Positions 6,583 through 62,997 of a DNA stretch of 64,000 bases are shown here, piece after piece. The notes beneath the pieces were generated by a model. That model searched no databases. It was not told the DNA's origin and worked only from the letters and a program-made list of their open reading frames with translations. The number at the start of each line of letters is the position of its first letter. Positions within the stretch are counted from its first letter, which is position 1. The stretch is taken from contig CAZHXQ010000001.1 of the NCBI GenBank assembly GCA_964536465.1, positions 6,913-70,912 on the forward strand, given 5' to 3'. The position numbers were made by a program, and so were the translations under genes. This DNA comes from an uncultured Anaerolineaceae bacterium (GTDB lineage: Bacteria > Chloroflexota > Anaerolineae > Anaerolineales > Anaerolineaceae).

Positions 6583-7992
6583 TTGACCAGGAATACTTTT
6601 CTGTTTCGATTAATTTTGTCTGTGGGGGCAACCGTCTTTTTATCCTTTTCATCCACTCAAGCCGGCAACCAGCCTGAGGACACCATCCCTGGGTTCAGCT
6701 GTTATCGCGATGCTGCTTCTGTTCTCGAAAGCCTCGAGACGATCGAAGAAAATTATCCCAGGTTGGCTCAGTTGACCAGCATCGGTTCTTCCTGGGAAGG
6801 TCGCCCGATCTATTTACTCAAACTCACCAATGCCGCCATTAATGCCTCCAAACCTAAATTAATTTTGCTGAGCGGACTGAGCGGAAATGCCTTCGCGCCC
6901 GTGGAGTTAAGCCTTCGTTTTGCTGAGAACCTGCTGAATGAGTATGGATCCGACCCTGACAGCAGCTGGATGCTCGATTATCTGGAATTGCACCTGATTT
7001 TGATCGCCAACCCGGATGGACGCGTAAGAGCCGAGCAGCAGGCGCAGGCTGGTGAGGAAATTACCTGGCAAAATAACGCCCATAATGCCTGCCCAAACCG
7101 GCAGGTTGGCGTTCGTCTGGACCACAATTTTGGCTTTGAATGGCGACTTTCTGATGGTGGAGCTTGTAATCCATCTTATGCTGGCCCTTCATCCGCCAGC
7201 GAGCCTGAAACGCAAGCAGTCATGGCTTATCTCGAGCAGCTCTCTGGACAGTCAAACCAGGTTTTAATGCTTCATCTGGACGGTCAGAAAAGTGTTACGC
7301 TCAGCCCATTCCTATACGACCCCATCGCAGCCAACCCTCACATCGATGAACTTTATACGCTGGCAGAAAAAATCGCATATGGAACAGCATCCACACCGGT
7401 CAGGCAGGGATCAAATTTGGCATTACAGCCGTCCTATGGAACGCTGGTCGATTATGCCTATGGACAATTGGGGATACCTTCGCTGGTTTTCGACATGGGT
7501 GACCTCAACTGGTGCTGGAACTTCGAAGAAAATCTGCTGGAACCGAATATGTACGCATTGAGGCGGGCGGCAAAAGCCAGTGCTGACCCATATCACCGTC
7601 CTTTCGGACCTGAAGTTGTGATTGAAAACATCGATTATGAAAGGAATAGTCTCACTCTTCAGGGATACGCCGACGACTACACCACCTGGTGGGAGTTCGG
7701 CGCGGATACTTACAGCCAGGTGAAACGTCTTGAGTTTTCTGTGGATCTGCCCCCCTGGCATCCGGATGCTATCATGTATCCAATCAATGGTTTGACCAGA
7801 GATGCTGAATTTGACTTTATCTCACGTTTTGAGGACAAAATCGCATATTGGCAGCTGCCTCCCGGTAAACATCGGCTGTTTATCCAGGCCTGGGATACAG
7901 AAGCAGGTAGTAACCCGAGCAATCCCGGACTGATCAGCGCGGTAGACATCTTGGTTCCGTATCGGTCTTTTTTCCCGCTAATTATCAGGTAA
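6583..7992 (+). CDS. Secreted M14 carboxypeptidase-like protein (paralog of 1..810, active-site residues degenerate)
   Basis: TTG start followed by a signal peptide (LILSVGATVFLSFSSTQA). The M14 scaffold is present (WEGRPIYLLKL, LILIANPDGR, GVRLDHNFGFEW), but the HxxE position reads SGNAF. Confidence 0.75.
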   Translation: MTRNTFLFRLILSVGATVFLSFSSTQAGNQPEDTIPGFSCYRDAASVLESLETIEENYPRLAQLTSIGSSWEGRPIYLLKLTNAAINASKPKLILLSGLSGNAFAPVELSLRFAENLLNEYGSDPDSSWMLDYLELHLILIANPDGRVRAEQQAQAGEEITWQNNAHNACPNRQVGVRLDHNFGFEWRLSDGGACNPSYAGPSSASEPETQAVMAYLEQLSGQSNQVLMLHLDGQKSVTLSPFLYDPIAANPHIDELYTLAEKIAYGTASTPVRQGSNLALQPSYGTLVDYAYGQLGIPSLVFDMGDLNWCWNFEENLLEPNMYALRRAAKASADPYHRPFGPEVVIENIDYERNSLTLQGYADDYTTWWEFGADTYSQVKRLEFSVDLPPWHPDAIMYPINGLTRDAEFDFISRFEDKIAYWQLPPGKHRLFIQAWDTEAGSNPSNPGLISAVDILVPYRSFFPLIIR

Positions 7993-8100
7993 TGGTTATT
8001 CGCCAGAATATCGGGCGGTTCCGTTTCTGTTAACGAACGTTACCGACACATTTCAATCTGACGACTGGCGCCAATAACAACCTCGTTGATCACCGCGGAA

Positions 8101-8180
8101 GTTTTTCTATTAATCGCTGTACTTCAAGATTAAGAATGTTATTCTTTCTTTCTCTATTAAGTAGTAAATAGTAATAGAGC
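8101..8180. other. AT-rich stretch with TAG/TAA trinucleotide repeats (candidate DNA-unwinding element)
   Basis: Hand count gives 21 G+C in 80 nt (26%). Positions 8162-8177 read TAG TAA a TAG TAA TAG, immediately before a DnaA-box-like site. Confidence 0.5.
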
Positions 8181-8181
8181 C

Positions 8182-8445
8182 TGTGGAAAGTGGGGAAGGT
8201 TGATCACTATCACGCATTTTATCGTTATTCAACGAGGCATTCTGGACTGTTGCTTAAAATCCCGGGTGGCTGTGGATAAAAGAGCGCTTATCCCCATTAT
8301 TCTTTTAATCTCAGACAGAAGCAACGCTCGGGCGGCTTTTATTCAGAAAGTATCCGCAGTCTTTCAACTGGTAATACCGAGATAGCCACAGGATTTATAC
8401 ACACCACAGGCAGGCTTATCCACAGAATATGGGGAGTTATCCACA
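8182..8445. promoter_or_regulatory. DnaA-box cluster (candidate oriC or DnaA-titration locus)
   Basis: Perfect TTATCCACA at 8416-8424 and 8437-8445, and perfect reverse TGTGGATAA at 8271-8279. One-mismatch TTATCCCCA at 8288-8296. Two-mismatch sites at 8182-8190, 8350-8358 and 8382-8390. The cluster lies between convergent genes. Confidence 0.6.
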
Positions 8446-8451
8446 GATTGA

Positions 8452-9456
8452 TCAGAGGTTGTATTCGTTCTTGTAACCTTCCAAAAGATGTTCTGCCTGA
8501 TCAATGAAGTGATCCAGACCTTGCAGGAGGCTTTCGTTCTGGTCGTGGGTGAAACCGAGTGCTGCCAGAAATTGCTGCCATTTTTGATGGTGTTCTCGAC
8601 CTTCAAGGCAGGAAAGCGCCTGCAGCCAGGTTTCAATCATGGGCCACAGCACGGCATGCAGCGCCCCGCTTTCTGCCATTGCCTCGACGCTCTGTAGAAA
8701 GTAAGCCTTCCTCACCCTGGAGATGTTTACCGGGCAATCGGCCTGTTTATTGGCTGCTTCCAGGGCTTCTTCCCAGACCGGACGCCACTGCTTGAAGAGA
8801 GTATCGTTCATGTTTTCATTACCCAGCAAGCGGGTCAGTTCACCAATCAGGGGCAGTCTTTCCAGCGTTTCCATTCGGCTGGTGAAGTCGAGCATAAATC
8901 TGCGTGTGGTCAAGGCTGGTCCGTTCAGACAGGCGGGTGCGTTTGCGGCAGTTCCAACGGTCTTAAAATAAAGCGCAATCCAATCTTCCCAGCGGACCTC
9001 CTGGCAGTCGTTCAGGTCGAACCACAGACTGCGGGCCTTTTCGGCGAACTGTTGGGCGCGCCCGTAGACGTTTTCCGGGCTGTCAAAGCGTGCGCTTACG
9101 CTGGCCTGGATAAATTCGAGCCAATGATCGTTATCAAGTAATATGTTTTGATGATTACACAGGGCATAGCCGATCCACGGGTTTTGACGTAAACGACGAT
9201 GATAAGTGTAGAAATATTGATGGTGGTGTTCAATATCCAGAGAAATTTCGTAAGTCACCCTTATGGCTTCCCGCTTGAGCGGAGGTTCTTCTTTATGCAC
9301 GAAAATCAGGTCGATGTCAGTACTGCCTCCCAATAACGGCTCACCCTCCGAAACCGAGCCGGTCAGGTAGACCGCAACCAGGTCTTTTTCCTTTCGAACT
9401 CTCCGGGCGATGTGGTCCCTGGCAATTTTCAGCAGCATTTCCTGATTTATTCTCAC
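8452..9456 (-). CDS. Nucleotidyltransferase-domain protein (Pol-beta superfamily), function unknown
   Basis: N-terminal VYLTGSVSEGEPLLGGSTDIDLIFV matches the GS...DxD minimal nucleotidyltransferase signature. The rest is a helical domain. Confidence 0.6.
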   Translation of the reverse strand: MRINQEMLLKIARDHIARRVRKEKDLVAVYLTGSVSEGEPLLGGSTDIDLIFVHKEEPPLKREAIRVTYEISLDIEHHHQYFYTYHRRLRQNPWIGYALCNHQNILLDNDHWLEFIQASVSARFDSPENVYGRAQQFAEKARSLWFDLNDCQEVRWEDWIALYFKTVGTAANAPACLNGPALTTRRFMLDFTSRMETLERLPLIGELTRLLGNENMNDTLFKQWRPVWEEALEAANKQADCPVNISRVRKAYFLQSVEAMAESGALHAVLWPMIETWLQALSCLEGREHHQKWQQFLAALGFTHDQNESLLQGLDHFIDQAEHLLEGYKNEYNL

Positions 9457-9466
9457 AAAAGCTCCT

Positions 9467-10105
9467 TCAGCTTTCCAGCGGCAGACTCTGTTGATAGGGA
9501 GCCAGCCGCAGGGCTTGTTTTATTTGGTTGATCACGAAATCCAGATCGGCAGGGTCGGAAATAACATTCAGATTGTCGGTTTCAATGTTCAGTACCCGTC
9601 CCTGCCACTTATCCTGTGCAAAGAAGTGATCATAAGCTTCCATTAGCTCGCCGATGTAAGCTGGGTCCATATTGCGCTCAAATGAACGATCGCGGTGGGC
9701 GATGCGATTCATCAGTGTCTCCAGACTGGCTTTCAAGTAAACCACCAAATCCGGGCTAGGGATTTTATCTGCCAGGGCGGCGTGGACGTTATGGTAAACC
9801 TCCAATTCATCACCCGCGAGGTTTATTCCGGCGAAAAGGGCGTCTTTGTCGAAGGTATAATCTGAAATTACCATCTTGCCACTCTTTAGAACCCCAGGAA
9901 TAAACTTGTTTTGCTGATGATAGCGACTCATCAAAAAAAATATCTGGGTCTGGAAAGCGTAACGACTGCGATCGCTGTAAAAATTGCTCAGAAAAGGATT
10001 TTCTTCAAATACTTCCAGAAGGACTTCGCCTTCAAAGGCAGGCTTGAGCAGGCGCGCCAGGGTCGTTTTACCAACCCCGATAACACCTTCAATAGCAAGA
10101 TACAT
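9467..10105 (-). CDS. Deoxynucleoside kinase
   Basis: P-loop IEGVIGVGKTTLARLL, then FEENPFL, RSRYAFQTQIFF and DRSFER, which are dNK/dCK/dGK family motifs. 212 aa. Confidence 0.85.
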   Translation of the reverse strand: MYLAIEGVIGVGKTTLARLLKPAFEGEVLLEVFEENPFLSNFYSDRSRYAFQTQIFFLMSRYHQQNKFIPGVLKSGKMVISDYTFDKDALFAGINLAGDELEVYHNVHAALADKIPSPDLVVYLKASLETLMNRIAHRDRSFERNMDPAYIGELMEAYDHFFAQDKWQGRVLNIETDNLNVISDPADLDFVINQIKQALRLAPYQQSLPLES

Positions 10106-10275
10106 AAAATCACTCCGCGATAAGATTTGGAGTTAAAACTATACCATAAAGGACTGCTATGAAGCTCGATCACGAGCATTGGGAGCTGGAAAAGATCGAG
10201 CTGGGAAGAAGAGATAGCCAGTGACCTGACTGACTGACCATGCCAACTCAGTTGGAGGTTGGAAAAAAGGCAATC

Positions 10276-11049
10276 TCAAATCTTCAAGTGCTCATGCAGG
10301 GTTGCAGCGGTCTGAACAAACTCAGGGGTAAAGCGCATCTGATTGCTACGGGGGCGCGGCAAGTTGACTGGCAGGTCCAGCACTATTCCCTGCGGATAGT
10401 CTGATAGCACCAAAACGCGATCGGCCAAAAAAACTGCCTCAGAGATAGAGTGGGTCACCATCAGGATCGTCTTGCGTTTCTCGGTCCAGATGCGCAGCAG
10501 TTCCTGGCTCATGCGTTCACGGGTCAGTTCATCCAGGGAAGCAAAGGGCTCATCGAGAAGCAAAATGTCAGGGTCTTGCACCAGCGACCGGGCGATTGCA
10601 ACCCTCTGCGCCATCCCGCCTGAGAGTTCGTGAGGCCAGGAGTTCTCAAAGCCCTGCAGACCGGTAAGCGCTACCATTTCCTGTACACGCGCGTCAGTTT
10701 CTGCTTTAAGGGTTCCTGCTAATTCAAGGGGCAGGGCAATGTTATCGCTAAGCGTTCGCCACGGCATCAGGTTAGCTTTCTGAAAGACCATTCCGGTTCG
10801 GGCCTGCCTGCCGTGGATATCCGGAAACTCAATCGTGCCAGCCTCATAGGGGATCAAACCCGCAAGTGCGCGCAGAAGCGTGCTTTTACCACTTCCCGAA
10901 GGTCCTACCAGACAGGCGAAAACATTTTTTTGCAGGCCGAAACTCACGTTCTCCAGAACCTGCAGGAGACCATCTTTCTCTTGAAAGCTGACCTTCAGAT
11001 TCAGGACGACCAGTGAGTTTTCAGGGAAGGAAGTCATTCGTATACACAT
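10276..11049 (-). CDS. ABC transporter ATP-binding protein (nitrate/sulfonate/taurine-type importer)
   Basis: Walker A GPSGSGKST, signature LSGGMAQRVAIAR and Walker B ILLLDEPF. An alternative start lies at 11037 (MTSFPE...). Confidence 0.85.
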   Translation of the reverse strand: MCIRMTSFPENSLVVLNLKVSFQEKDGLLQVLENVSFGLQKNVFACLVGPSGSGKSTLLRALAGLIPYEAGTIEFPDIHGRQARTGMVFQKANLMPWRTLSDNIALPLELAGTLKAETDARVQEMVALTGLQGFENSWPHELSGGMAQRVAIARSLVQDPDILLLDEPFASLDELTRERMSQELLRIWTEKRKTILMVTHSISEAVFLADRVLVLSDYPQGIVLDLPVNLPRPRSNQMRFTPEFVQTAATLHEHLKI

Positions 11050-11995
11050 CCTTGATATCGAGATTACTTTTAATCAGGCCGATCTCGAGCAGCACGTTCA
11101 TCATATTGGTCCAGCGCAGGTTCTGCTCCGCTTGAGTTTCGGGTATAAGCTGCCAATGGCTGATCGATTCTTTGAGCACTTCTTTCTGAATCGGCGCAAC
11201 TTCCTCAGTCAGATTCTCTACATATTTTTGGCTGATCGTCCAGGCTTCCTCTTGATTTGCTGCGGTATATTCAAGAGCTTTCCTGAAAGCCCTCACCACT
11301 TTTCCAACCAGGTCAGAGTTGTTTTCAATGCTGGTTTGATTGCTGACCAGACAATTCCCAACCAGCTGGATATAATCTTGAACGGCAATGAGCTCAATTT
11401 CATAGCCTTTTGCGCGTAGTTGTACCGGCTCGTTAGCCAGGTAGACTACCACGGCATCCACACGACCACTGATCAGGCTCTCCACCTGGGTAAAGCCGAT
11501 CGAGACCAACTTGTAGTCATCTCGCTTGAGGCCAGTCTGAGAAGCCAGCGCTTCCATCCCGATGTAATTGGCTCCGTAAAGCCCAGGCAGCCCAATCTCT
11601 TTTCCGGCCAAGTCAGCCGGCTCAGTGATACCAGCGTCTTTGAGCGCGGCCACCCCCACAGGGTAATCTTTGTACCAGGTGGCCACCGACACTACCGGCA
11701 GCCCCTGCTCACGGCTGAGCAAAACCTGTTCCCCTGAGGCGATCGTAAACTGCTGATGGTTTGAACCCACCAGCGCCACAAAATCAGCTTCGTTACCATA
11801 AGCAAGCTCGACTTCCAGCCCTTCCTCAGCGAAAAAACCCTTGTCGATGCCAACATACATTGGCGCGAACTGGATATTAGGTACATAGGTGAGATTGAGA
11901 GTGATTTTTTCAAACTCGCTGGTGTCTTCCGATTTACAGGCGGACAAAACGAGAACTAAGATCAGGATAAAAAGTACGGGAATATTTTTTTTCAA
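11021..11995 (-). CDS. ABC transporter substrate-binding lipoprotein, NMT1/THI5-like
   Basis: Lipobox LVLSAC after the signal peptide. A periplasmic-binding fold of NMT1/SsuA type is suggested by LNLTYVPNIQFAPMYVGIDKGFF. It lies in an operon with the permease and ATPase. Confidence 0.8.
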   Translation of the reverse strand: MKKNIPVLFILILVLVLSACKSEDTSEFEKITLNLTYVPNIQFAPMYVGIDKGFFAEEGLEVELAYGNEADFVALVGSNHQQFTIASGEQVLLSREQGLPVVSVATWYKDYPVGVAALKDAGITEPADLAGKEIGLPGLYGANYIGMEALASQTGLKRDDYKLVSIGFTQVESLISGRVDAVVVYLANEPVQLRAKGYEIELIAVQDYIQLVGNCLVSNQTSIENNSDLVGKVVRAFRKALEYTAANQEEAWTISQKYVENLTEEVAPIQKEVLKESISHWQLIPETQAEQNLRWTNMMNVLLEIGLIKSNLDIKDVYTNDFLP

Positions 11996-12007
11996 GATAC
12001 CTCCAGG

Positions 12008-12817
12008 TTAACTTTCTTGCCAGGTCTGCCATTTTAAGGCTCGCCGCTCGATGAATAATACTACGCTGTATAAGCTGGCGGCCAGGAAGATCAGGCTGAA
12101 TACGGCAACGAACACCAGCGCGGTGTCATATTGCCCGCGACCGAGATTGATCAGATAACCCAGCCCCCGGTCGGATCCCACCAGTTCACCTACAATTGCC
12201 CCGATGACCGAAAGTGTTGCCCCAACCCGTAGTCCGCCCAGCAATACGGGTAGAGACGCGGGCACCTCCAGATAGCGCAAAATCTGCCATTTACTGGCTT
12301 TGAAAGAAGCCATCAATTCGCGCAGATCCTGCGAAACCTGACGCATCCCTACCAGAACATTGACTAAAACCGGAAAGAAAACCGTCAGGGCACAGATGAG
12401 CACCTTAGAAAACAACCCCGGTCCAAACCAAATGATGATCAAGGGGGCGATTGCCACCACAGGCACCGACTGACTGCCTACTAAAAATGGCGAGAGCAGT
12501 TTCTCAAGCAGTGGTGTTTTTGACAGGATGTACCCGAGGATGGATGCAATCACACTACCAATCAACAAGCCCAGGGTAAGCTCAAGTAAGGTATAAGAAG
12601 TGTTGTGCCACCACATGCCGTTGCCGAACACTTGAATAAATTTTGCCCACACCATCGCCGGACTCGGCAATATAAAGGGGGGTAAGTTTAGAATCGCGTA
12701 AAGCAGTTGCCAAATCCCCAGGAACAAAACAAAGGAAGCCAACGGCAGAAGCCAGCGCTGCCGGGTAGCTCTGAGCCAGAAGGGGTTGGTCTGAGGGGTC
12801 TTCAATCGTATTGCCAT
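12008..12817 (-). CDS. ABC transporter permease (binding-protein-dependent inner-membrane component)
   Basis: 269 aa with about 6 TM segments and an EAA-like loop (ELMASFKASKWQILRYLEVPASLP). Confidence 0.85.
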   Translation of the reverse strand: MAIRLKTPQTNPFWLRATRQRWLLPLASFVLFLGIWQLLYAILNLPPFILPSPAMVWAKFIQVFGNGMWWHNTSYTLLELTLGLLIGSVIASILGYILSKTPLLEKLLSPFLVGSQSVPVVAIAPLIIIWFGPGLFSKVLICALTVFFPVLVNVLVGMRQVSQDLRELMASFKASKWQILRYLEVPASLPVLLGGLRVGATLSVIGAIVGELVGSDRGLGYLINLGRGQYDTALVFVAVFSLIFLAASLYSVVLFIERRALKWQTWQES

Positions 12818-18397: not shown

Positions 18398-18558
18398 AAT
18401 AAGATTATACACCTTCAAGATACTAATTCAAGGTTTTTTTATTAGAATTTTGAATATTACTTATTAGACAGATATCTCAACCTGTCTGGCGTGTGTAAAA
18501 ACCTGCGTAAAAATCGCGATACAGAAGACTAATTTGACAGGGAAGTAGGCTTAAAAAT

Positions 18559-34850: not shown

Positions 34851-35918
34851 ATGGAACTCAAAATTGGCAAGCACCTGATCGGTGACAAACATCCTACATA
34901 CTTTATCGCGGATATCGCCGCCAATCATGACGGCAGCCTGGAACGCGCACTGCATCTTATCCACCTGGCCGCTCAAGCAGGAGCCAATGCCGCTAAGTTC
35001 CAAAACTTCCGCGGGGCAGAGATTGTTTCCGATTACGGCTTCAATCACATGAATGCCCAGGTCTCTCACCAGGCTAATTGGAAAAAGAGCGTGACCCAAG
35101 TCTATGATGACGCCTCTATACCCTTTAACTGGACGCCGATCCTCAAGCGGGAGTGCGACCAGGCTGGGATTGACTATTTCTCTTCCCCCTATGACTTTGA
35201 AGCCACAGATATGCTCGACTCCTACGTGCCCGCTTATAAAATCGGCTCAGGCGATATCACCTGGATGGAAAATTGCCTGCGCATGGCCGAAAAAGGCAAA
35301 CCGGTACTGCTGGCAACAGGCGCTTCCCATATTGGCGAAGTCCAGCGAGCAGTAGAAGCCATCCTGGCGGTTAACCCAAAATTGATTTTAATGCAGTGCA
35401 ATACCAATTACACAGCTGCTGATGGTAACTTCGACAACATCCATCTGAATGTGCTCAAAACCTACCATCAGATCTGGCCGGAGCTGATTTTAGGCCTCAG
35501 CGACCATACTCACGGTCATGCTACCGTGCTGGGTGCGGTCGCCCTGGGTGCCCGTGTAATAGAAAAACATTTCACTGACGATAACGATCGCGAGGGGCCG
35601 GACCATGCCTTTGCCATGAACCCGCAAAGCTGGGCAGAAATGGTGCGTAACACCCGCCAACTGGAACGCGCACTTGGTTCTGGCAATAAATTTGTAACTG
35701 ACAATGAAAAAGAAACTGTGGTTGTGCAACGCCGCTGCCTGAGGGCTGGACGGGACATACAAACCGGTGAGAGGCTGACCCGTGAGATGATTGCTGTGCT
35801 GCGCCCGGCCACCCCCGGTGCGATTGAGCCCCACGAAGTCGACAGGGTGGTTGGTCTTAAAGCGCTCAGAGATATCACGCGTGGGCAGGAACTGCGCTGG
35901 ACGCAGTTAGGCGATTAA
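34851..35918 (+). CDS. Nonulosonic acid synthase (NeuB/PseI/LegI family) with a C-terminal SAF domain
   Basis: PTYFIADIAANHDGSLERALHLIHLAAQAGANAAKFQNF, SSPYD, YKIGSGD, SDHT, IEKHFT, and a C-terminal SAF-like segment (RRCLRAGRDIQTGERLTREMIAVLRP). Confidence 0.85.
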   Translation: MELKIGKHLIGDKHPTYFIADIAANHDGSLERALHLIHLAAQAGANAAKFQNFRGAEIVSDYGFNHMNAQVSHQANWKKSVTQVYDDASIPFNWTPILKRECDQAGIDYFSSPYDFEATDMLDSYVPAYKIGSGDITWMENCLRMAEKGKPVLLATGASHIGEVQRAVEAILAVNPKLILMQCNTNYTAADGNFDNIHLNVLKTYHQIWPELILGLSDHTHGHATVLGAVALGARVIEKHFTDDNDREGPDHAFAMNPQSWAEMVRNTRQLERALGSGNKFVTDNEKETVVVQRRCLRAGRDIQTGERLTREMIAVLRPATPGAIEPHEVDRVVGLKALRDITRGQELRWTQLGD

Positions 35919-44473: not shown

Positions 44474-45535
44474 ATGATCGATATCGAATTTTATAAAAAA
44501 GTAGGCGATCTAAAAAAACGACTCAGTGCAGGTGAAAACTTCTCACGGTTAGAACTTGAAGGGTTGATTGAAAGTTATCGCAGCCCTTATCCTGTGGTTT
44601 ACAACATAGAAACTACCAATGCCTGTAATATGCGCTGTGAGATGTGCCCCCGTACTACCATGATGACCAGGCCCGTTGAAACCATGGCGCCAGAGCTTTT
44701 CAAAAGCGTCATTGATCAGCTTTCTCCCTTCAGCCCGGAACAATTGGCTCGCTGGGAGGATTTTGCTGAAGGCTATTACGGTGTGCCCAGGAATGGTATG
44801 AGCGAAAACCATTTCTTCCTTTACATCATCCCCAGAGTGATTGTGCTCCATGGTTATGGCGACCCGCTTTTGGATAAGAATATCCCTACCTATGTCAGGT
44901 GGATGACTGAACGCGGTCTTGAGTCTTACTTCTCATGTAATCCTGCTAACATCAATATGGCCCGCACGATTGAAACCTTTGAAAATGGCCTGGGATATGT
45001 AAAGTATTCCATCGAAAGCGTGGATGACCTTCGTCACAAAAGTGTGCGTGGTGAAGCCTCTAATTTTACTGAAGCCTACCGCAACATCTTGAGTCTGCTC
45101 GAACTGAAAGCCCAAAGAAATTACAAAACCACGATCGTGATCACTATGATCAACCTCAATAAGCCCTGGCAGCAGGAAGAATATCAGAAGTTGGTTGAAG
45201 CCTTTGAGGGGCTTGACGTCTATGTTTACCTCAAGAGTCAGGACCAAACCTGGTACGAAGACAACCGGCAGACCACAGAATCCATTCACTGGCAGGAATT
45301 TTGCCAGTTCCCATGGTCTTCCATGACCGTCAAATCGAATGGGGAATGTGCTGAATGCGTCGAAGATTTCAACAATGAAATTATCCTGGGTGATACCCGG
45401 ACGCAAAGCCTTTATGATATTTGGAATGGAAAAGCCTACCAAAACTTCCGCAATGACCATTTCAACCTAAAACCTGGAATCAAGTGCACAGAGCAATGCG
45501 ACATGCACCTGATTGGCAGCTACTTAGCTCAGTAG
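44474..45535 (+). CDS. Radical SAM enzyme with a C-terminal SPASM/twitch-like Cys cluster
   Basis: NIETTNACNMRCEMCPR is the CxxxCxxC motif. VLHGYGDPLL is the GGE-like motif. C-terminal cysteines are CQFPW...SNGECAECVEDF...CTEQC. Confidence 0.85.
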   Translation: MIDIEFYKKVGDLKKRLSAGENFSRLELEGLIESYRSPYPVVYNIETTNACNMRCEMCPRTTMMTRPVETMAPELFKSVIDQLSPFSPEQLARWEDFAEGYYGVPRNGMSENHFFLYIIPRVIVLHGYGDPLLDKNIPTYVRWMTERGLESYFSCNPANINMARTIETFENGLGYVKYSIESVDDLRHKSVRGEASNFTEAYRNILSLLELKAQRNYKTTIVITMINLNKPWQQEEYQKLVEAFEGLDVYVYLKSQDQTWYEDNRQTTESIHWQEFCQFPWSSMTVKSNGECAECVEDFNNEIILGDTRTQSLYDIWNGKAYQNFRNDHFNLKPGIKCTEQCDMHLIGSYLAQ

Positions 45536-45543
45536 AGGAATTT

Positions 45544-46419
45544 ATGAGAAATACTATCAAAATTGGCGAACGAGTCATAGGCAACGGCTATCCGATTTAT
45601 ATCGTTGGAGAGATTGGCATCAACCATAATGGCGAACTTGAAGTGGCGAAAAGCCTGATGCTGGCCGCAAAGAAGGCTGGCATCGATGCGGTCAAATTCC
45701 AAAAACGGACGCCTGAAATCTGCGTCCCCCCGGAACAACAGTCACAGATGCGTGATACCCCCTGGGGTTATATCAGTTACCTTGACTACCGCTATAAGGT
45801 TGAATTTGACGAGGCTGACTATACCGAGATTAATCGTTATGCCAAAGAGTTGGATCTCGATTGGTTTGCCTCTTCATGGGATATTCCCTCACTTGAGTTT
45901 ATGGAAAAATTCAACCCACCTGTTCACAAAATCCCTTCGGCGCTGTTGACTGACCGAGAATTACTGCGAGCTCACCGCGACACGGGAAAACCCCTGATTG
46001 TTTCAACTGGCATGTCCACCATGGAGCAGATCAAAGAAGCGGTGGGCATCCTGGGGGAAGACAACATAGTTTTATGCCATACTACCAGTTCCTATCCCTG
46101 CCCCCCTGAAGAATTGAATCTGCGCATGATTCAAACCCTGTGTGACACGTTCAACTGTCCCATAGGTTATTCCGGGCATGAGGTTGGGTTGGTTCCAACC
46201 GTAATTGCCTCAGCGTTGGGAGCCTGCCTGGTAGAGCGTCATATCACTCTCGACAGGGCTATGTGGGGGTCCGATCAAAGCGCGTCAGTGGAACCACAAG
46301 GTATTTCCACGCTGGTCAAATACATACGTGTGACTGAAAAGTCACTTGGTGATGGAATAAAGAAGGTCTACGACAGCGAAAAATCTTCTCTCAAAAAGCT
46401 ACGACGGATCAGCCAGTAA
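45544..46419 (+). CDS. NeuB-family nonulosonate (or nonulosonate-9-phosphate) synthase lacking the SAF domain
   Basis: Start at ATG 45544. PIYIVGEIGINHNGELEVAKSLMLAAKKAGIDAVKFQKR, FASSWD, HKIPSA, YSGHE and VERHITLDR. The 291-aa protein ends before the usual C-terminal SAF/antifreeze-like domain. Confidence 0.8.
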   Translation: MRNTIKIGERVIGNGYPIYIVGEIGINHNGELEVAKSLMLAAKKAGIDAVKFQKRTPEICVPPEQQSQMRDTPWGYISYLDYRYKVEFDEADYTEINRYAKELDLDWFASSWDIPSLEFMEKFNPPVHKIPSALLTDRELLRAHRDTGKPLIVSTGMSTMEQIKEAVGILGEDNIVLCHTTSSYPCPPEELNLRMIQTLCDTFNCPIGYSGHEVGLVPTVIASALGACLVERHITLDRAMWGSDQSASVEPQGISTLVKYIRVTEKSLGDGIKKVYDSEKSSLKKLRRISQ

Positions 46420-61818: not shown

Positions 61819-62997
61819 CTACTTTTTCTTCAGCGCCCACCTGCTCCCAGGTAGAGGTTGCAAGCGGCCGAAACCGGCGCGGGCAAAAAAGCTGGCGAAA
61901 CCGATCTCGCCCAGGTCGTAGCGGGGCGGGATGGCTGGCCGCGGTTGACATATGTCGTCCAGCGGCAGCGCTTCAACGCAGCCTGCCCCAGCCCGCCAGG
62001 CTTCCCTGACCGACTCGCGCAGCAATGCCATGAACAGTGAAGAATACTCTGAGCGCGCAGCCAGAGAGATTTGGCGGATATGCCACCTCGGGCGGCCCGA
62101 GGTTTCCGATTCGTCAGGCAGGCAAACAAGCTCACTGGCCCCAATGGGTCGCTGCCCCTCGAATAAAAGTACACCCGCCCGCAAACCTGCTGTCCGCATG
62201 CTTTCCAGGGTGACATCTTCGGGGCTTTCACAACGGTCCATCATCTTCATTAAGCTTTCTTGTTTCTCTGAGGGTAAGCTTTGCTGCTCACTTTTCTCCA
62301 GAATGTTGATGAAACGCAGATAATCCTCCGGGCTGTGTGCCAAATGCAGGTGGAAGCGTGCCGGCAATTGCCACTTTGCAGGCGTTTTGTTCTCGTACAG
62401 GTTGTTGGCATACTCCTGGTATTCGGGCGGCAAACTGAGTTTGTAGAGGTTGCAAATATAGACCAAATCCTGGTAATCCTGATGGTCAAAGTCATAACCC
62501 AGGTGAAAGTCAACCAGCCATTCCGGATGGATACAGCAGACGTCCATTCCTGAGATGCGCCCTTGCCCGGTCAAGGAATCTCCGGGGTACTCCACGCCGG
62601 CGATGATCTGCCCCTTACTGTTGCGCACAAAACTATGCAGGTCGATTTGGTGACCAGCGCCGTTCTCGAGCACAAAGTTGTGCGCCCATTCATCTTCCCT
62701 TTGCAGATATTGATAGTCAAGCCGACGCAGGATATTAAGCAGGCGCGGCAAATACTGCTGGTTGATGGCCAGGTCGAGGTCGGAATGCTCCCTTGTCTGC
62801 CAACCCAACAGCGCGTCAACCGCCCAACCGCCATCCACTATCACCGGTATGCCGGCGATTTCAGCCAACTGCAATACCCGTGCAACCTCCTCCTCGTCCA
62901 TGAGCGGGTTTTCACAGGGGTGGATGCGGGTCGAAAAATCGGTGAGCAGGTCTGCAAGTTGGGGGTCAGAGGGGCGCATGTGCTTGAGCTGGTTCAT
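61819..62997 (-). CDS. Fusion of an ANT(2'')-like nucleotidyltransferase domain with a C-terminal GNAT-like region
   Basis: The N-terminal half has VIVDGGWAVDALLGWQTREHSDLDLAI, which parallels the recalled ANT(2'')-Ia WIGGGWAIDARLGRVTRKHDDIDLTF. The C-terminal 150 aa resemble an acetyltransferase fold only loosely. Confidence 0.6.
   Translation of the reverse strand: MNQLKHMRPSDPQLADLLTDFSTRIHPCENPLMDEEEVARVLQLAEIAGIPVIVDGGWAVDALLGWQTREHSDLDLAINQQYLPRLLNILRRLDYQYLQREDEWAHNFVLENGAGHQIDLHSFVRNSKGQIIAGVEYPGDSLTGQGRISGMDVCCIHPEWLVDFHLGYDFDHQDYQDLVYICNLYKLSLPPEYQEYANNLYENKTPAKWQLPARFHLHLAHSPEDYLRFINILEKSEQQSLPSEKQESLMKMMDRCESPEDVTLESMRTAGLRAGVLLFEGQRPIGASELVCLPDESETSGRPRWHIRQISLAARSEYSSLFMALLRESVREAWRAGAGCVEALPLDDICQPRPAIPPRYDLGEIGFASFFARAGFGRLQPLPGSRWALKKK

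Follow-up and report, generated by a model that had tools for sequence, protein, structure and literature searches.

Bacterial chromosome origins are often found close to dnaA or dnaN, a proximity that is common without being a defining property. The oriC of Escherichia coli, for example, has gidA/mnmG and mioC as its neighbours and is separated from dnaA by about 42 kb. Among the cyanobacteria, Synechococcus lividus PCC 6715 has an oriC that lies far from both dnaA and dnaN (PMC6323995).

The closest described counterpart of the locus discussed here is the basal unwinding system (BUS), a module that was described for Bacillus subtilis and has been surveyed across bacteria (PMC8287927). In the B. 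subtilis oriC (incC) it consists of DnaA-boxes 6 and 7, a GC-rich gap and the DnaA-trios (PMC6669920, PMC8287927, PMC10721633). The criteria of the survey call for three or more NAN trios, the proximal one being 3'-GAT-5', and for at least one DnaA box no more than 16 bp away from them. The boxes form a tandem pair, in which the upstream box is nearer to the consensus and lies about 10-13 bp from the first trio, and the published thresholds admit boxes with 2 and with 4 mismatches (PMC8287927). Table S1 of this 2021 survey also contains one entry from the family considered here, DoriC ORI94030346, an oriC predicted for Anaerolinea thermophila UNI-1 (NC_014960).

In this work we examine a 459-bp intergenic region at positions 7993-8451 of a 64-kb stretch of DNA from an uncultured Anaerolineaceae bacterium; this whole stretch is referred to as the window. 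We regard the region, with a probability of roughly 0.87, as the DnaA-dependent chromosomal oriC of this organism. This reading is based on the anatomy of the region, its conservation throughout the family, its specificity, a local switch of GC skew in the relatives, and homology to the oriC predicted in DoriC. An earlier note on the same DNA had proposed an oriC-like module away from dnaA and dnaN, with a datA/DARS-like titration site as its fallback. The origin proposal is supported by the published BUS criteria, by synteny in 72 of 75 genomes, by the skew of the relatives and by the DoriC homology.

Anatomy of the intergenic region

The region and its neighbours contain the following features, given in window coordinates:

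6583-7992, plus strand: M14 carboxypeptidase gene (Pfam PF00246), the variable left flank, outside the conserved unit
8099-8161, no strand: AT-rich stretch and candidate DNA unwinding element (DUE), assigned from its GC content; the same position is AT-rich in almost all related loci
8162-8177, plus strand: DnaA-trio array 5'-TAG TAA a TAG TAA TAG-3', the only match of our strict BUS scan on both strands of the window
8178-8181, no strand: 4-nt spacer AGCC between trios and boxes; most relatives have GGGC here, B. subtilis has GGCC
8182-8190, minus strand: DUE-proximal DnaA box TGTGGAAAG (CTTTCCACA on the minus strand), 2 mismatches
8191-8199, minus strand: second box of the tandem pair, TGGGGAAGG, 4 mismatches, degenerate in the lineage of the window
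8271-8279, minus strand: perfect DnaA box, oriented like the DUE-proximal boxes; the equivalent box is kept in relatives at an offset of about 170
8288-8296, plus strand: DnaA box with 1 mismatch, TTATCCCCA, kept at an offset of about 156 in close relatives
8395-8403, plus strand: DnaA box with 1 mismatch, TTATACACA, at offset 49, the first of three same-strand boxes at 21-bp spacing
8416-8424, plus strand: perfect DnaA box, the second of this 21-bp-spaced array
8437-8445, plus strand: perfect DnaA box at offset 7, the last of the array, 6 nt short of the stop codon of NT334 (8452-8454); found in nearly every relative
8452-9456, minus strand: NT334, an uncharacterised nucleotidyltransferase-fold protein of 334 aa; its 3' end abuts the box cluster in all related loci
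9467-10105, minus strand: deoxynucleoside kinase gene (dNK; Pfam PF01712, E = 8.7e-38), upstream of NT334 in nearly all relatives

The three perfect TTATCCACA boxes are the only ones in the 64 kb, and all of them fall inside 175 bp. The chance level was estimated from 100 shuffles of the 64 kb that preserve dinucleotides: perfect boxes occurred at a mean of 0.28 per shuffled sequence and a maximum of 2, and none of the 100 shuffles contained three. When boxes with up to 2 mismatches are included, the 459 bp hold ten, that is, three perfect boxes, two with 1 mismatch and five with 2 mismatches. This corresponds to 21.8 per kb in the intergenic region, compared with 3.5 per kb window-wide.

Beside the boxes lies the putative unwinding module. 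Read outward from the spacer, the trios are in frame as TAG, TAA, TAG and AAA, or 3'-GAT AAT GAT AAA-5' in the published notation. The adjoining DNA is poor in GC: positions 8100-8179 have 23-25% GC, and 8099-8178 is the 80-mer with the second-lowest GC content of the window. Its boxes with 2 and 4 mismatches, the gap of 4 nt and the four trios in frame beside DNA of 24% GC bring the region within the published BUS thresholds. We also scanned 2.9 Mb, comprising the window and the related loci introduced below, with criteria of our own that are stricter than the published ones. This strict scan returned a single match on the two strands of the window, at 8178. Over the entire 2.9 Mb it returned 32 matches, 30 of which are situated in the homologous intergenic regions and 2 outside them.

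Much of this anatomy had already been recognized in the earlier note. Its three perfect boxes within 175 bp were confirmed in coordinates and strand, and its reading of TAG TAA a TAG TAA TAG, then AGCC, then a box-like sequence was reproduced at 8162-8190. The low-GC stretch that it placed upstream is real, and the resemblance it saw to a DnaA-trio / GC spacer / DnaA-box arrangement is borne out by the published BUS criteria. The re-check of the sequence altered only the numbers of imperfect boxes: there are two boxes with 1 mismatch (8288-8296 and 8395-8403) where one had been counted, and five boxes with 2 mismatches in the 459 bp where three had been counted.

The two neighbouring genes converge, as the earlier note had described, with the M14 carboxypeptidase gene on the plus strand and NT334 on the minus strand both ending at the region. 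Since both neighbours end there, no promoter is needed in the region. In line with the earlier view that the boxes are not due to promoter control, promoter and terminator scans of the region stayed at background level.

Several other kinds of element were considered for this stretch. An explanation by promoters or terminators was rejected on the scans just mentioned. An RNA element was likewise rejected, as Rfam returned nothing in the region; its only match in the window is a tRNA-Arg at 22.3 kb. A plasmid origin was also rejected, a distant blastn search of 7900-8600 against a plasmid collection giving no match.

Conservation across the Anaerolineaceae

Wherever the source gives a name, homologues of NT334 belong to Anaerolineaceae or Anaerolineae (Chloroflexota), and metagenome contigs of several samples carry identical copies. 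Scanning one genome per species yielded a comparative set of 80 Anaerolineaceae loci with NT334 proteins that are 37-89% identical. The set includes Levilinea saccharolytica as well as genomes of Bellilinea, Anaerolinea, Brevefilum and Mesolinea.

In nearly all 80 loci, perfect DnaA boxes crowd directly after the stop codon of NT334. Boxes were counted in those 75 loci whose sequence continues for 400 bp or more beyond NT334. Within 500 bp after the gene, at least one perfect box is present in 72 of the 75, at least two in 64 and at least three in 44, counts that overstate the number of independent observations because the loci are phylogenetically related. Perfect boxes reach a density of 5.3 per kb in these 500 bp versus 0.010 per kb over the remaining sequence of the loci, a difference of about 500-fold. 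A same-strand pair of boxes 20-22 bp apart was found in 48 of the 75 genomes. The clustering persists when protein identity drops to 37% (Levilinea, Bellilinea, Anaerolinea and Brevefilum) and also when the far flank has other genes.

The module occupies the same syntenic spot in 72 of 75 genomes, and the remaining intergenic sequence and one flank vary. What is conserved is a unit in the order dNK, NT334 and box cluster, and the gene on the far side can be an M14 peptidase gene, nadE, cinA, comEC, a TetR gene, SpoVS or others. In one locus (L018) the small dNK-NT334-cluster unit is inverted relative to both flanks.

The internal order of the cluster is conserved as well. In the orientation of the window it starts with AT-rich DNA, followed by (TTAATTAAG)TAGTAAnnAGTAATAG, then GGGC, then TGTGGAWA and directly thereafter TGTGGATAA. 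Another box of the same orientation follows about 90 bp beyond TGTGGATAA. The cluster ends in an opposed set of TTATCCACA boxes, the last three of which are 20-21 bp apart and abut the NT334 stop. The equivalent of the box at 8182-8190 is TGTGGATA or TGTGGAAA in nearly all relatives, and the equivalent of the box at 8191-8199 is a perfect TGTGGATAA in many of them, 12-13 bp from the first trio. This distance is the commonest spacer in the published survey (PMC8287927).

When the window and related loci are aligned (74 sequences), the best-conserved columns are the spacer-proximal TAG at about 99% and the TGTGGA cores at 80-95%; between the elements the sequences have diverged too far to be aligned. 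At the other end of the scale, conspecific contigs from six samples have the trios, the spacer, the AT-rich element and the three perfect boxes intact and nearly identical.

Deep-branching relatives show a variation on this theme, in that alternate trios read TCG, with a central C in place of A. Trios that deviate in lacking the central adenine were only conjectured in the published survey (PMC8287927). The alternating TAG/TCG trios of the deep-branching members could conceivably be a natural case of such deviant trios.

Separation from dnaA and linkage to NT334

The window had been described in the earlier note as devoid of dnaA, dnaN and gid/par genes, and this was upheld by our searches. 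Pfam scans detected no dnaA, dnaN, gid or par gene in 54 large ORFs of the window, which comprise most of those of at least 150 aa and one intergenic ORF of 61 aa. The PROSITE pattern for the DnaA signature had no match in six-frame translations. Because such a regular expression is insensitive, tblastn was run afterwards with B. subtilis DnaA, a query validated against PDB 8btg (E = 4.5e-298). It found nothing in the window or in any related locus, with flanks of up to 10 kb. A contig that reaches 8.5 kb past the left end of the window carries no dnaA either, and in this organism the stretch free of dnaA covers 17 kb on the left side of the origin and 56 kb on its right side. As for dnaN, it is located 3.5-9 kb from the cluster in four deep-branching relatives only (L083, L085, L081 and L080).

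With the searches of the window, of its left extension and of all related loci negative, separation from dnaA is a property of the family within the flanks available. The origin is unlinked to dnaA across the family over these flanks, and it is locked to the 3' end of the dNK-NT334 pair.

The protein that marks this position has no match in Pfam or NCBIfam. NT334 contains invariant GS...DxD motifs, and its AlphaFold model (pLDDT 88) weakly matches ANT(4')/KNTase structures. This weak ANT(4')/KNTase-like fold match was all that the search for a function of NT334 returned, with no hint of a role in replication. It is conceivable that the linkage of dNK, NT334 and origin is functional and not historical, with NT334 and the kinase coupling initiation to the deoxynucleotide supply or modifying an initiation factor, but we consider this unlikely.

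GC skew and gene direction

Over the 64 kb of the window the cumulative GC skew is V-shaped, with a minimum at about 12-13 kb, roughly 4.6 kb to the right of the cluster. This minimum coincides with a change in gene orientation. The earlier note had placed such a flip at the cluster itself. This is correct only approximately: the five genes just to the right of the cluster, at 8452-12817, are on the minus strand, and plus-strand genes prevail only from 13 kb onwards. The raw skew minimum of the window, like that of its close clade, is found 4-6 kb from the cluster, at the nadK/permease boundary.

The relatives provide a broader picture. Skew was compared in 41 related loci with at least 6 kb on each side, using local sequence only (loci ±10 kb). 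GC skew is higher to the right than to the left in 38 of these; left of the cluster it is below zero in 33, and right of the cluster it is above zero in 32. In 16 of the 41 the cumulative minimum falls within 1.5 kb of the cluster, where uniform placement would put about 6, a rough estimate and not a computed value. Minima this close to the cluster occur notably in the deep-branching clade, where the genes on the flanks are not related to those in the window. Two further loci, from 5.4-Mb contigs with arbitrary coordinate origins, also have their minimum at the cluster. The negative-to-positive polarity in the relatives is that of an origin and not of a terminus, and we take it as support for an origin in these relatives.

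Skew at third codon positions was analyzed by regression on gene orientation and side, which contrasts genes that run with replication from the cluster and genes that run against it. The GC3-skew contrast peaks at the cluster, with 0.064 overall and 0.18 in the deepest clade. In the window and in its clade the regression is flat or noisy and gives no replication-related signal, so GC3 skew is not counted as evidence for the window.

Gene direction runs counter to the usual picture. Genes adjacent to the origin point towards the cluster, in one clade about 75% of those within 10 kb (233/309), which is the opposite of the usual co-orientation. Local co-orientation thus lends no support to an origin, with more genes directed towards the cluster than away from it; we discount this result because the loci share synteny and represent few independent observations.

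Comparison with known origins

The likeness to the B. subtilis module extends to individual bases. Its BUS is given in Table S1 of the survey as TTATCCACA-AATCCACA-GGCC-CTA... (PMC8287927), and the consensus of the Anaerolineaceae family is TTATCCACA-TATCCACA-GCCC-CTA... on the same reading. In both, a consensus box is overlapped by an 8-mer box, after which come a G/C gap of 4 nt, 3'-GAT/AAT-5' trios and AT-rich DNA, in the same order and at the same spacing. They differ in their surroundings, as the B. subtilis origin flanks dnaA and is bipartite, whereas the Anaerolineaceae origin lies away from dnaA. Further differences are the degenerate tandem boxes in the lineage of the window (2 and 4 mismatches) and the TCG trios in the deep-branching relatives, and the Anaerolineaceae module is known from sequence.

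With the origins of E. coli and S. lividus the locus shares a chromosomal position physically apart from dnaA, and with E. coli oriC also the oppositely oriented sets of DnaA boxes beside a DUE. Unlike both, it has dNK-NT334 as neighbour genes. The boxes set it apart from the cyanobacteria, which use TTTTCCACA, whereas the Anaerolineaceae use the perfect E. coli-type TTATCCACA.

Within the family itself, the predicted oriC of A. thermophila allows a direct comparison. The published BUS call for ORI94030346 lies at genome positions 420-460 and has a 2-mismatch box, a 16-nt spacer and a score of 7 (PMC8287927). The top strand of this 40-nt excerpt reads TACGATTACGACGATTCC-TGATTCATTTC-TGTGGGGAA. 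It agrees with the trio element of locus L078, TACGAATACGACGATTCC, in 17 of 18 bases, and 12 nt on follows TGAGGATAA, with the box at the same distance. The next-best matches, in L076 and L070, are on the trio elements of these loci too. Because the 40-mer matches the trio elements of related loci, the origin chosen by Ori-Finder for the complete genome of A. thermophila is the same locus, here compared over 40 nt only; it is a homologous locus from another genus and itself a computational prediction. From the comparison across the family, the published BUS call seems to be out of register, as it uses a box beyond the unwinding region and the opposite strand instead of the conserved tandem-box/GGGC/TAG arrangement. 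An NT334 orthologue of A. thermophila was not among the 120 matches listed in our protein searches.

How the origin may work

By analogy with experimental work on B. subtilis and H. pylori, on which the binding and unwinding steps are modelled, we infer that DnaA binds, unwinds the DNA and fires the origin at 7993-8451. DnaA would bind the high-affinity boxes, which form two oppositely oriented sets. The three boxes at 8395-8445, with their 21-bp spacing, make up one set; the second consists of the box at 8271 and the tandem low-affinity pair at 8182-8199. Starting from this pair, ATP-DnaA would oligomerise past the 4-nt spacer and along one strand of the TAG/TAA trios (8162-8177). The oligomer would then stretch and open the AT-rich DNA (about 8099-8161), where the helicase would be loaded and from where replication would proceed in both directions.

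Titration site, second origin or operator?

Several observations speak against an origin: the displaced skew minimum of the window and its close clade, where GC3 skew gives no replication signal, the inward-pointing flanking genes and the degenerate boxes beside the trios (2 and 4 mismatches). Could the cluster instead titrate or recycle DnaA, like datA, DARS1 and DARS2 of E. coli or the DnaA-box clusters of B. subtilis, with the true oriC elsewhere, for instance beside dnaA? Like those sites it has consensus boxes away from dnaA, and a cluster that does not adjoin dnaA, lies some 4.6 kb from the skew minimum of the window and has flanking genes converging on it would fit such a role. We judge this to be very unlikely, as the locus includes an unwinding module that is the most conserved part of the region. 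To our knowledge, titration and recycling sites do not carry a trio/spacer/tandem-box module beside an AT-rich element; nor do we know of a trio/spacer/AT-rich unwinding module, or a position at a skew switch, for datA, DARS or the B. subtilis box clusters. In many relatives of the window the skew changes sign exactly at the cluster, and Ori-Finder/DoriC picked the homologous region as the oriC of A. thermophila.

The degenerate boxes raise another question, namely whether the chromosome has a second, active origin elsewhere, the locus being either its partner or a former origin in decay. The tandem DUE-proximal boxes, with their 2 and 4 mismatches here, are perfect in many relatives, and the skew signal is weak in the clade of the window. 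We know of no dual DnaA-dependent origins in Chloroflexota. Moreover, low-affinity boxes beside the trios are normal in proven origins, 2 and 4 mismatches being allowed (PMC8287927). The intact trios, spacer, AT-rich element and three perfect boxes of the conspecific contigs from six samples also argue against decay, and taken together this makes a second or former origin highly improbable.

Transcriptional DnaA operators of a neighbouring gene, or an integrated plasmid or phage replicon, are extremely unlikely: DnaA does regulate nucleotide-metabolism genes in other bacteria, a deoxynucleoside kinase gene is nearby, and L089 and L090 have a SpoVS gene whose start is about 600-700 bp past the cluster, but both neighbouring genes end at the region in the window, the plasmid collection gave no match, promoter and terminator scans of the region are at background level, the ORFs scanned include no replication-initiator, integrase or mobile-element gene, and the chromosomal synteny is stable across the whole family.

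Implications for the family

Read as the chromosomal oriC, the locus extends the B. subtilis-type unwinding module to the Chloroflexota almost base for base. The presence of a near-identical module in this phylum supports the view that the unwinding module is ancestral. The general picture of bacterial origins is unchanged by this, and origins away from dnaA have already been documented.

The Anaerolineaceae are abundant and mostly uncultured inhabitants of anaerobic digesters and sediments. The locus gives them a well-supported origin position, which helps to orient and check their metagenome-assembled genomes and aids growth-rate estimates from peak-to-trough coverage as well as analyses of strand bias.

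Genes and rearrangements around the putative origin

Genes related to nucleotides and DNA flank the putative origin (intergenic 7993-8451), in the window at 8452-10105 and elsewhere at L089:8846-12559 and L092:14840-15472. In nearly all related loci a deoxynucleoside kinase gene (dNK) lies upstream of NT334, the gene for a 334-aa protein that borders the origin in the window. The product of NT334 is an uncharacterised protein with a nucleotidyltransferase fold, for which a resemblance to ANT(4')/KNTase-like enzymes is suggested by a weak match. Two of the loci, L089 and L090, carry a divergent SSB gene upstream of dNK as well as a second dNK paralogue across the origin, on its other side; in the organism of the window a second paralogue is located about 5 kb to the left of the window.

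The 2-kb unit formed by dNK, NT334 and the origin is inverted in the related locus L018 relative to both conserved flanks, when compared with the window. An ABC transporter block is now found there on the origin side, and an M14 gene upstream of dNK. Likewise, the nadE-cinA-comEC block beside the origin is inverted in clade D (loci L043-L068). The breakpoints of rearrangement seem to cluster around the putative origin. Within 10 kb on either side of the DnaA-box cluster, 233 of the 309 long ORFs of clade D (~75%, a count inflated by shared synteny) are directed towards the putative origin, the reverse of the usual co-orientation with replication.

Other features of the window

A long plus-strand cluster for polysaccharide or nonulosonic-acid biosynthesis occupies 27169-53144. 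It comprises two NeuB-family genes, four genes with a PF02348 cytidylyltransferase domain, an ABC-2/Wzt exporter, a radical-SAM/SPASM gene and several glycosyltransferases. Patches of low GC (39-46%) are seen at 25-27 kb and 44-46 kb. The 80-mer with the lowest GC of the window (21%) is intergenic, lying between a SpoU methylase gene and a polysaccharide deacetylase gene, and contains no DnaA boxes. An identical product of the 392-residue ORF listed below was not found in the assembly collection.

Individual features of the window
18398-18477, lowest-GC 80-mer
34851-35918, plus strand, NeuB-family gene
45484-46419, plus strand, NeuB-family gene
61819-62997, minus strand, 392-aa ORF, aminoglycoside-2''-adenylyltransferase family match (PF10706, E = 1e-22)

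DnaA-trios in deep-branching relatives

When the B. subtilis register is applied, the trios of the deep-branching Anaerolineaceae (L069-L088, with L073 and L088 as examples) are TAG/TCG in alternation or in a run (e.g. TAG TCG TAG TCG); therefore, a central C replaces the conserved A in many of them. The NAN period is retained on the complementary strand. The AT-rich element of this clade also contains an additional box (TTATCCACA, TTATTCACA or similar); it lies ~25-35 nt past the trios, on their far side, in L070, L073, L083, L080, L069 and L072. Anaerolinea thermophila has TGTGGGGAA at the equivalent position, and the window lacks a counterpart of this box.

For A. thermophila, a basal unwinding system with a 2-mismatch box, a 16-nt spacer and a score of 7 has been called (PMC8287927, Table S1, row NC_014960 / ORI94030346). 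Judged from sequence comparison, the register of this call seems wrong, because the family alignment (region compared, L078:11318-11390) places the canonical tandem-box/GGGC/TAG module on the opposite side of the same trio-like element.

dnaN in the vicinity of the putative origin

Genomes of Brevefilum, Bellilinea and their relatives carry dnaN, unaccompanied by dnaA, at a distance of 3.5-9 kb from the origin.

dnaN genes in the compared loci
L083:14686-15876, minus strand
L085:15920-17113, plus strand
L081:2-1063, minus strand
L080:20229-21002, minus strand

The nearby dnaN could be a vestige of a linkage that an ancestor had between the origin and this gene.
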